Shown here one piece after another: positions 33,309 through 37,537 of a stretch of DNA of 64,000 nt (positions within the stretch are counted from its first letter, which is position 1; each line of letters opens with the position of its first letter). The position numbers were made by a program, and so were the translations under genes. Source of the stretch: a bacterium (GTDB lineage: Bacteria; Zhuqueibacterota; Zhuqueibacteria; Zhuqueibacterales; Zhuqueibacteraceae); NCBI GenBank assembly GCA_044869275.1, contig JBIOXB010000223.1:1-64000 (forward strand). The letters are read 5' to 3'. The notes below the pieces were generated by a model. That model had not been told where the DNA came from. It saw only the letters and a list, made by a program, of their open reading frames with translations, and did not search any database.

Positions 33309-33468
33309 ACGAGCCTCATATGCCGCGCCTGGGCATGGGCGAATGCTCTGAAATCTGACAGCGCCGGACTGATGCTGGCGTGTATCTTTTTGAGGTCAAC
33401 TTTTTCATAGGCATGCACGAGCAAGTTTCTCATTGTTGCGTTTTGCTCTTAACGATGTGCGGGGACAT
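33305..33468 (-). pseudogene. HepT/DUF86-like HEPN toxin remnant
   Basis: MSPHIVKSKTQQ* overlaps the MNT stop, then out-of-frame MRNLLVHAYEKVDLKKIH.. (RX4H HEPN motif); far shorter than a DUF86 protein. Confidence 0.72.
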
Positions 33469-33868
33469 TTTTCATCTCCTGCACGCGACGGGCGAGCACG
33501 GCATCACGAAAACGGCGAAGCGGCTCGGTGTCTTCGAAGATTCTGAACGCTCGGATTTTTTGCTCGAAAAACAATCCGGGTTTCGCTTCGTAAAGGGCTT
33601 TGCCTTTCTGAAAGATTTCGAGAAGTAGAACGGGATCGGTTACGGCATCAATAATGGCAACGTCGACCTCTTGCTGAAAAAGATCTTCCATTTCGCCATA
33701 CAATCGGATAACGTTTTCCCGCAAAGGTGCGGTGCGCGAAGACAGTGCGATGTCAACATCGCTGCGCGCCTTAGTTTTACCTGTTGCTTGCGAGCCAAAG
33801 AGGATCATTAAATCAATCCCGCGCTCTTGGCACCATGACGATAGTATTTGTTGGTCCAAATCAAGCAT
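33449..33868 (-). CDS. MNT (minimal nucleotidyltransferase) antitoxin, MntA-like
   Basis: GSX10DXD (GSQATGKTKARSDVD), EVDVA; TTGCAA-N17-TATCTT upstream. Confidence 0.85.
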   Translation of the reverse strand: MLDLDQQILSSWCQERGIDLMILFGSQATGKTKARSDVDIALSSRTAPLRENVIRLYGEMEDLFQQEVDVAIIDAVTDPVLLLEIFQKGKALYEAKPGLFFEQKIRAFRIFEDTEPLRRFRDAVLARRVQEMKNVPAHR

Positions 33869-33972
33869 GATCACGGATTTTTGTTTTTGGGAGACGCTTG
33901 CTTGAAAGATAAGCGCAAATCTGTTGAGTTGCAACATGGATTCTTCACGATCAGATACCGCTAGAAGGTGCG

Positions 33973-36199: not shown

Positions 36200-36214
36200 C
36201 TTCGGATTGAGAAC

Positions 36215-36318
36215 TAGAAGACTTCCCCATTTCTCAAACTGCGAATGAACGCGAATAGACGCGAATTGAGAACATATTAGCGTACATTCGCGGTTTCAAA
36301 AAACGGGCAAGTTATCTA
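36215..36318. repeat. nested palindromic repeat with 10-nt GCGAAT units
   Basis: GCGAATGAAC/GCGAATAGAC/GCGAATTG..ATTCGCG inside an imperfect 18-bp outer inverted repeat. Confidence 0.55.
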
Positions 36319-36361
36319 AACGGTGATCGTCAATGACCCCGAGCCAAGAAAAACGCCTTGT

Positions 36362-36391
36362 TTGCAATTTGGACGCGCAGTACATTATGAT
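36362..36391 (+). promoter_or_regulatory. sigma70-type promoter for zinc-ribbon/TIR pair
   Basis: TTGCAA-N18-TATGAT about 70 nt before ATG 36463. Confidence 0.45.
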
Positions 36392-36462
36392 GGTTCTTGA
36401 ATGGAGTAGCTCCTCGCAGGACAGCGCGATGAAGTTCATTCCAAACTCCATGGGAGGTCGTC

Positions 36463-36681
36463 ATGGCAGAGCAAAACTGGGAAGCGGTTGAAGTTTATTG
36501 CCGTTATGATGAATGTGCGGAGCAGATTCAAGGGTTGGACAACAAACCGCGGCTTTCAAAAAGGAAGATGAGATTTACCGGCCAGGAGTTCTGGGGCGCG
36601 GCGGTGTTCACCTGTCCGCTGTGTGGACGCCAGCGCAAGTTCAAGGAGCGAACATTCGGCACGGGCTTCACCGAGATTTAG
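36463..36681 (+). CDS. small putative zinc-ribbon protein
   Basis: GGAGG RBS; CX4C ... CX2C; paralogous to the C-terminus of the next gene. Confidence 0.8.
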   Translation: MAEQNWEAVEVYCRYDECAEQIQGLDNKPRLSKRKMRFTGQEFWGAAVFTCPLCGRQRKFKERTFGTGFTEI

Positions 36682-36754
36682 TTCAACCTTTTGCGGCACA
36701 TCAGATTGGGAACGAGCTTCTTCGCATTTTCCTTCTCTCTTTGAGGAGATAAAT

Positions 36755-37537
36755 ATGCTGGTTTTTCTCAGCTGTTCTGGTGAAAGGAGTAAATCCGTTG
36801 CTGACGAATTGGCAAAATGGCTTCGTAAAGTAATACAAGCGGTTGAGCCTTGGATATATACCGATATCGAAAAAGGAGTCAAATGGGGTCCGGAAATATT
36901 TAGAAAACTGAAAGATTCCAAAGTTGGAATTCTGTGTGTGACAAAAGAGAATCTTGACTCAAGATGGATACTTTTCGAAGCTGGGGCTCTCTCAGTTAAG
37001 CAAAACGCTTACGTTTGCACACTTCTCTTAGACGTTGAGCCAACAGATGTAAAACAACCTCTTGCCCAATTTGAAGCCACCAAGATTAACAAAGAAGATT
37101 TTTATCGGCTTCTTCAGACAATTAATCGGGCAGTGGAGGAATCGGGGGAACGAGCTTTGGGTGAATTTGATCTAAAAGAATTATATGATTACCATTGGCA
37201 TCTTCTAGATGATCGATTTAAAAAGATCAACGAGGCGGGGGCATCGATTCCAATGCCGATCCGTTCTGAGCGAGAAATGCTGCAAGAGATTCTCGAATTG
37301 GTGAGGAGTCAAGTACGAGATACGAATTGGGAACCAGTTGAAGTTTATTGCCGTTATGATGAATGTGCGGAGCAGATTCAAGGATTTGACAACAAGCCGC
37401 GGCTTGCAAAAAGGAAAATGCGATTCACGGGTATTGATGATGGCGGCGCAGCGGTGTTTGCTTGTCCAGTTTGCGGTAGCGAGCGTAGATTCAAAGAGCG
37501 AACGTCAGGCAGAGGCTTTGCTGAGATTTATTCTTGA
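36755..37537 (+). CDS. TIR-domain protein with C-terminal zinc-ribbon domain
   Basis: GAGGAG RBS; VFLSCSGERSK..WL..VIQAVEPW..DIEKG..W..GILCVT.EN..WILFEAGALS; C-terminal copy of the upstream 72-aa protein. Confidence 0.88.
   Translation: MLVFLSCSGERSKSVADELAKWLRKVIQAVEPWIYTDIEKGVKWGPEIFRKLKDSKVGILCVTKENLDSRWILFEAGALSVKQNAYVCTLLLDVEPTDVKQPLAQFEATKINKEDFYRLLQTINRAVEESGERALGEFDLKELYDYHWHLLDDRFKKINEAGASIPMPIRSEREMLQEILELVRSQVRDTNWEPVEVYCRYDECAEQIQGFDNKPRLAKRKMRFTGIDDGGAAVFACPVCGSERRFKERTSGRGFAEIYS

Follow-up and report, generated by a model that had tools for sequence, protein, structure and literature searches.

In the window, a 64,000-nt stretch of a genome of the Zhuqueibacteraceae, a free gene for a small four-Cys protein is followed by a gene whose product joins a TIR domain to a diverged copy of that same protein. 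A similar fusion is found in a second, distant lineage, and the pair is therefore likely to be an anti-phage switch. As to the way in which it may work, we tentatively favor a defense TIR NADase that would be switched by a matched pair of zinc ribbons, one canonical and one degenerate. Fusions of TIR effectors with sensors are known; in bacteria one can seldom observe how a sensor is captured from a host gene and later updated. For the present pair, the gene that was copied can be compared with its fused copy, with the empty site of relatives and with a covalent form that has two copies; the pair occupies 1.1 kb and is easily cloned.

The gene pair and the four-Cys protein family

The free gene (36463..36681; forward strand, as are all features of the locus unless noted) encodes a 72-aa predicted zinc ribbon (Zn) with the pattern C13-x4-C18, C51-x2-C54, and the second gene (36755..37537) encodes a 260-aa fusion protein, TIR::Zn'. 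The latter comprises a TIR domain with a helical extension (aa 1–188, 36755..37318), which is the conserved core of a TIR subfamily, and Zn' (aa 191–258, 37325..37528), a degenerate copy of the free protein with altered hairpin tips. This arrangement, a small ORF recurring as the C-terminus of the next gene, had been proposed in a sequence-only reading, and both ORFs and the recurrence are present, as is the exact repeat of 47 nt (36487..36533 and 37337..37383), the longest stretch shared by the two genes, which lies within a 5' half of low synonymous divergence. The description of the fused copy as near-identical holds for the 5' half alone: a segment of 107 nt is shared at 90% identity, and overall 70 aa align at 75.7% identity and 207 nt at 79.7%. 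All four Cys are retained in the fused copy, as had been stated (13/18/51/54 = 199/204/237/240). No third copy of the small domain was found in the 6.67-Mb assembly of the genome, in which the free and fused copies match each other at E 3e-33.

Both genes are preceded by RBS-like motifs read from the sequence, in agreement with the earlier reading: GGAGG (36453..36457) upstream of the free gene, as also upstream of its orthologs in L035 and G007, and GAGGAG (36743..36748) upstream of the TIR gene, whose start Met is the same in most homologs. A promoter-like site (TTGTTT, 17 nt, TACATT, with an A-tract upstream; 36358..36386) is predicted to drive Zn, TIR::Zn' and dusB. Equally spaced hexamers (TTGTCT, 17 nt, TACATT) stand upstream of the L035 ortholog; a consensus promoter scan listed a site overlapping 36358..36386, but at chance level (2 found, 1.7 expected). 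The pair is flanked in conserved synteny by genes for a GT4 glycosyltransferase (PF00534, 35066..36199) on the left and a dusB-type tRNA dihydrouridine synthase (Dus, PF01207, 37580..38599) on the right, the Pfam matches agreeing with the earlier naming of the two neighbors. The TIR is indeed AT-richer than these flanks, with a GC content of 0.42 in the core (GC3 0.36) versus 0.54 in GT4 and 0.57 in dusB. A Pfam scan of the window revealed no defense island around the locus.

Public sequencing runs lend no support to an assembly artifact, although their contigs end at the repeat, and the full stretch is not covered by any single one. A contig from run X1 covers 36504–37366 with zero letter differences, which is not independent support because X1 may be the source run, and pieces from run X2, of the same study, cover 36487–36838 and 37078–37359.

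Before its ATG, the TIR frame has no stop for some 60 codons (36572–36754) and there overlaps, in a different frame, the free gene's 3' half; a GTG at 36623 would give a TIR ORF of 304 aa. This opening is probably due to chance.

The 72-aa protein belongs to no Pfam, NCBIfam or PADLOC family above the cut-off. An exhaustive search of 1.84 billion representatives returned 34 matches at E ≤ 0.001, none of them a TIR fusion; 30 of these and six close sequences make up alignment A2, from which we excluded the repetitive, spurious P0012 and the longer proteins P0010, P0021 and P0032. The four Cys, R34, M36, P52, F60 and E71 are each conserved in at least 90% of the alignment rows. In the three longer proteins the domain lies N-terminal to a hydrophobic segment (19-residue hydropathy 2.2–3.0); with P0050 they represent a membrane-anchored form of the family, and in P0032 a larger domain follows. 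AlphaFold2 models the 72-aa protein as mostly beta (mean pLDDT 78), and we infer from its Cys pattern that it binds zinc. Foldseek with the zinc ribbon found nothing at E ≤ 0.001 in the PDB or BFVD, the best Z-scores for the fold in VIA (4.0 and 3.6) are not significant, and the Atlas matches are unnamed.

The gene is patchily distributed, with strong matches in 3 of the 167 genomes of the phylum, its own included, and one further weak match (E 8e-4). Among the viral contigs, phages and plasmids searched, the TIR core alone was matched and the zinc ribbon had no match. We found no description of the family, or of the free plus fused arrangement, in the literature covered, which takes in few subscription papers; the word "zinc" has 0 occurrences in the main texts of PMC11350192 and 10.64898/2025.12.03.692087, whose supplements may list such proteins. 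The four-Cys predicted zinc-ribbon family that this locus defines is unnamed, and occurs free, with TM anchors and with TIR.

The TIR core and a second lineage of fusions

The TIR core matches Pfam TIR_2 (39.3 bits versus a cut-off of 28), PADLOC TIR-TM (PDLC03016, profile positions 1–192, E 1e-49) and phrog_13899, and aligns over 127 aa, at 39% identity, with the P2-AC1 phage TIR, the best-known member of the TIR-TM model among the matches; the earlier assignment of the window TIR to defense is supported by the TIR-TM match and this identity. The three-gene 2TM-1TM-TIR system of P2-AC1 protects against lambda, LF82_P8 and P2, according to the accessible text of PMC9122126. The window protein shares with that system a homologous TIR core in which the Glu is kept. 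It differs in that adjacent 1TM and 2TM genes are absent (the neighbors being the free gene, GT4 and dusB), in that its tail is a zinc ribbon, and in that the free gene has no PADLOC match. Nor does the fusion protein itself contain a TM segment (maximum hydropathy 0.95).

We identified 1016 homologs of the TIR at E ≤ 1e-20 and examined the best 119. Glu75 (36977..36979), which the sequence-only reading had pointed out in the WILFEAG region, is present, and the homolog alignment has glutamate in this column in 120/120 sequences examined. We take this residue to be catalytic, from established knowledge of TIR NADases, and the TIR is predicted to be an NAD-cleaving enzyme. At other positions the window TIR is less typical: of the 52 sites at which 90% or more of 118 homologs agree, it departs from the consensus at seven. 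The departures include W7C (W in 111/115) and S35Y (S in 118/118), at both of which P0170 retains the common residue, and the changes at W7, S35, L62 and Q107 are private to the window TIR. Because of these seven differences, the window TIR may be weakened or decaying.

The fusion protein is modeled with a mean pLDDT of 90.6 and a pTM of 0.64, and Zn' in blocks of pLDDT 88–96. In VIA, SpbK ranks first by structure (Z 11.7, rmsd 3.7, 144 residues aligned), in a tie with SARM1, MyD88 and plant TIRs, which score within 1 Z of it; Foldseek gives E 6e-6 to the SPARTA TIR.

The shared core ends near residue 188, and Zn' begins at that boundary. Beyond it the subfamily is diverse: among the best 119 of the 1016 homologs, 116 tails fall into 90 clusters, many of them seemingly low in structure. 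Zinc-finger tails recur on this TIR core. Other CxxC tails are found in P0063 (with zf_Tbcl_2 at cut-off level), P0111, P0152, P0166 and P0167, and P0082 combines a TIR of the same subfamily with a histidine kinase.

The kinship with the P2-AC1 TIR bears on an alternative in which the TIR would make a cyclic ADP-ribose-type messenger for a remote effector, Zn' being the phage sensor. The P2-AC1 TIR is proposed, in the accessible text of PMC9122126, to signal to TM proteins; TIR-SLATT signaling is described in the main text of 10.64898/2025.12.03.692087; and a related TIR of the subfamily, inserted beside groEL in L036 (5001-7358), is followed by ORFs of 225 and 301 aa that, in our reading of the sequence, resemble a ThsB-type TIR and a SLATT effector. 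At the window locus, however, the effector gene is absent, as is the operonic, signal-responsive effector of Thoeris, and searches of its own genome for 1TM-TIR, 2TM-TIR and STALD gave no match, control queries being equally silent. We consider messenger synthesis quite improbable.

The fusion at first appeared to be unique, the query standing alone among eight candidates (representatives of 143–455 aa), and a fusion confined to this genome had been named by the sequence-only reading as evidence against its proposal. This was overturned by P0113, the one protein among 119 TIR homologs matched by the zinc-ribbon profile (E 7.6e-7), and by its cluster mate P0170. P0113 stops after half of the zinc-ribbon domain. 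P0170 has the order TIR-Zn'-Zn, with two complete tandem copies of the domain, of which the TIR-proximal copy has neither the Trp nor the last hairpin and the distal copy is canonical and keeps both. The TIRs of these two proteins are 98% identical, and we therefore treat them as one lineage, to which the window TIR is 59.9% identical over the first 160 aa. A scan of GTDB with the fusion alignment found four TIR loci, with the zinc-ribbon domain in none of them.

A quick tree groups the three fusion TIRs (SH-aLRT 92), and they share motifs, picked post hoc, that are seen in no other of 121 rows. In a careful tree, a long-branch row falls among the fusion TIRs and the grouping is present in 58% of bootstrap trees; the junctions also differ, P0170 being without the last core helix. 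From these comparisons one old fusion event is likely and two independent ones are possible.

Divergence, proposed exchange and history of the fused copy

Between the free and fused copies (codons 5–72), dN is 0.13 and dS 0.97, a dN/dS of about 0.13, and synonymous changes have saturated in the 3' halves (pS 0.76). Zn' is on these grounds old and, as far as substitutions can tell, constrained, so that the absence of purifying selection, which the sequence-only reading had also counted as evidence against itself, does not apply to the fused domain. A recent tandem duplication in the window strain is ruled out by the saturated 3' halves, and a single-crossover integration at the 47-nt repeat is ruled out because it predicts the resident 3' half in the second copy, whereas this half is found in the first. 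The changes in Zn' cluster at two predicted hairpin tips, where F43, W44 and F65 of the free protein are replaced by D229, G230 and S251. Family column 43 is hydrophobic in 32/34 rows and D or E in none, and column 65 is hydrophobic in 30/34 rows and S in none. W44 is nearly invariant among the 14 closest sequences, G occurring at this position in 4/34 rows family-wide.

The 5' half has a different history. Synonymous differences between the free gene and its L035 ortholog affect 2 of 28 codons in the 5' half versus 13 of 26 in the 3' half, and in nine flanking genes each of the 2016 windows of equal length (28 such codons) has more differences than the 5' half (the set omits a tenth gene, cytc, with seven windows, which was apparently matched in the wrong frame). 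The GC3 of the free gene is 0.50 in the 5' half versus 0.78 in the 3' half, and that of Zn' is 0.38–0.42 versus 0.66–0.67 in the flanks, TIR::Zn' being AT-rich throughout. We infer that DNA has been exchanged between cassette and free alleles, within and between lineages; the 5' half of Zn' looks homogenized by this process, and GC3 suggests the AT-rich cassette as the donor of the 5' half and the free gene as its recipient, not the reverse. An alternative to exchange is a nucleotide-level element. A conserved RNA structure in the 5' half gained no support from single-sequence folds, which differed on the forward strand. Over 36504–36617, the X3 data hold two free-type alleles of a close relative, on single low-depth contigs; one of them has the letters of the fused copy at synonymous sites 36534 and 36546, a weak hint of exchange between alleles.

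The constraint on Zn' bears on the possibility that the fusion is a passenger, in which a TIR tolerant of tails took a copy of its neighbor, the fold being kept for solubility, conversion explaining the identity and the TIR decaying. Such a history would suit the 90 tail clusters among 116 homologs, the private changes at W7, S35, L62 and Q107, the shortening of P0113, and the lack of the cassette in the X3 contig and L035. Yet two lineages whose TIRs differ by 40% carry fusions of one rare family (3 of 167 phylum genomes), in one case as a tandem pair, the tips have been lost in parallel in both TIR-proximal copies, Glu75 is retained, and a dN/dS of about 0.13 accompanies the saturated synonymous sites of the 3' half. 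We regard the passenger explanation as doubtful; should the TIR be inactive, the locus would remain a plain example of how a modular TIR subfamily captures tails, though of modest interest.

GT4 and dusB are adjacent in several relatives. In G001, a member of the same genus (99% complete), they are 296 nt apart and neither gene of the pair has a match; in G007 they are about 400 nt apart. The related species L035 has a dS near 1 in the flanks; there GT4 is followed by the free gene (81% identical) and, 9 nt on, by dusB, with no TIR. The contig of run X3, from another study (depth 4), agrees with the free gene's 3' half over 92 nt but for one letter and, after 113 other letters, runs into dusB. 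G004 and G007 carry the free gene at a different locus, and the TIR core is unmatched in both genomes. Because the free gene stands without the TIR in L035 and the X3 contig, it appears to predate the TIR at the site; on this comparison of relatives, the free gene was resident before TIR::Zn', which is a variable addition. A possible relic of the dusB 5' end behind the free gene was not significant (shuffle p 0.09–0.36).

Several minor observations concern the same region. An unrelated 252-aa ORF with N-terminal hydrophobic segments fills the GT4-dusB gap in G010 (L016:610-1368), marking the site as variable. The free-gene loci of G007 and G004 are L005:8040-9511 and L006:6602-8082, where the free gene comes after genes that are presumably macro-domain-like and Uma2-like. 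Right after GT4 in the window lies a dispersed palindromic repeat (36200–36330) with a predicted long hairpin (−39 kcal/mol) and 33 BLAST matches at E ≤ 1e-10 in its own genome, self and both strands counted; related copies are present elsewhere in the family, in L035 the corresponding spacer is far shorter (109 versus 263 nt), and the element may, at a guess, be REP- or MITE-like. A stand-alone Polbeta nucleotidyltransferase gene (MNT-like; 33449–33937, reverse strand) lies between CDGSH and GT9 genes, and neither it nor the GT9 gene is present at that position in L035.

The history of the site weighs on two other readings. Among the options of the sequence-only reading was a two-gene toxin/inhibitor module; a dedicated module of this kind found no support, because L035, the X3 contig, G004 and G007 have the free gene but no TIR linked to it; the linkage to a partner toxin expected of a type II toxin-antitoxin pair is lacking in these same four. 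An inhibitory free protein would bind the fusion and hold the TIR off, and its loss or sequestration during infection would free NAD+ depletion. The order of small gene and TIR behind one promoter-like site and the matched N-terminal halves would fit, and the covalent canonical copy in P0170 could autoinhibit. Against inhibition stand, besides the genomes and strains that conserve the free gene yet have no TIR, P0113, which has the TIR without an intact zinc ribbon, and the 118 other subfamily members examined, which manage without such a domain. We give inhibition little credence.

The other reading is that of an integrated decoy, in which a phage protein would attack the free protein, and Zn', having lost the host function, would mimic the attacked surface and fire the TIR, so that the copies need not touch. 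Zn' is 77% identical to the adjoining free protein versus 40–46% to the copies in P0170, which group with each other (95/90); the free gene is older than the TIR at the site, and the N-terminal half is retained while the tips are lost. On the other hand, the free gene is patchy and no core target, the data do not reject a common origin for all fused copies (p-AU 0.41, 71 columns), P0170 holds two copies in one chain, and GC3 points to movement of the 5' half from the cassette to the free gene. A decoy is in our judgment unlikely.

A proposed matched zinc-ribbon pair and its known counterparts

The main argument for a partnership of the two zinc ribbons is that P0170 has both copies in one chain. 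In the reading that we tentatively prefer, the canonical copy, free in the window and covalent in P0170, would bind a trigger by its intact hydrophobic tips, the trigger probably being an assembly of phage protein. Docking of the degenerate copy onto the canonical one would cluster the TIR domains, which would then cleave NAD+ and abort the infection. DNA exchange between the adjoining copies would keep their N-terminal halves matched.

Such a matched pair is in keeping with the fusion in the second lineage (P0170/P0113), with the purifying selection on Zn' and its confident model, and with the tips, which are lost in the TIR-proximal copies of both lineages and kept in the distal copy of P0170. 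It also accords with a TIR from the subfamily of the P2-AC1 defense TIR, the tails of which are swapped at the same junction, with SpbK as the closest solved fold, and with the presence or absence of TIR::Zn' among close relatives. Weighing against it are the seven departures at 52 conserved sites of the window TIR, the loss of most of the zinc-ribbon part in P0113, the count of two known lineages, the divided support for a single fusion origin (SH-aLRT 92 versus 58% bootstrap, with differing junctions), the free gene of G004 and G007 without a matching TIR, and the lack of a surrounding defense island; moreover, gene conversion between tandem neighbors requires no selection. Co-folding of the fusion with the free protein, which scored 0.00 in two runs on an alignment with the last core helix shifted in many rows, weighs on neither side.

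A switch of this kind would resemble sensor-effector defense proteins in function. SpbK is, according to the accessible text of PMC12847820, a single-gene TIR NADase activated by clustering on the phage portal, its activation being modeled as clustering on this phage ring. It is 17% identical to the window TIR, and its aligned TIR region is C-terminal (114–266). SpbK is not known to have a paired free gene. The sensor of Rip1 binds zinc. RAZR, an HEPN RNase, joins a zinc-finger sensor and an effector in one protein, and in RAZR and Rip1 a small sensor domain is fused to a lethal effector that phage ring proteins activate, with no free paralog described in the accessible text (PMC13434031). Unlike these, the window effector is a TIR and neither HEPN nor pore-forming, and the zinc domains of RAZR and Rip1 compare with the window zinc ribbon at background level (Z 2.9 and 3.0, ranks 22 and 32) and are not among the 52 PDB sequences that match it by HMM up to E 10. 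The likeness to SpbK and RAZR would, on our analysis, be functional, and membership in neither is established.

In plants, NLRs with integrated domains are the model of the integrated decoy. They resemble the window protein in that a host gene has a diverged copy within an immune protein: Zn' appears to derive from such a gene, being 77% identical to its neighbor versus 40–46% to the other fused copies, although monophyly of the fused copies is not rejected. A more ambitious interpretation, which we put forward with considerable doubt, is that a mobile TIR effector carries a copy of the adjacent host gene as its sensor or decoy, which gene conversion re-matches time and again to the local free gene, and would be a bacterial counterpart of plant integrated-domain receptors that draws its pair of canonical and degenerate copies from an undescribed zinc-ribbon family. 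In contrast to the plant NLRs, the window protein has no NB-ARC/STAND or repeat domain, and its source gene is directly adjacent.
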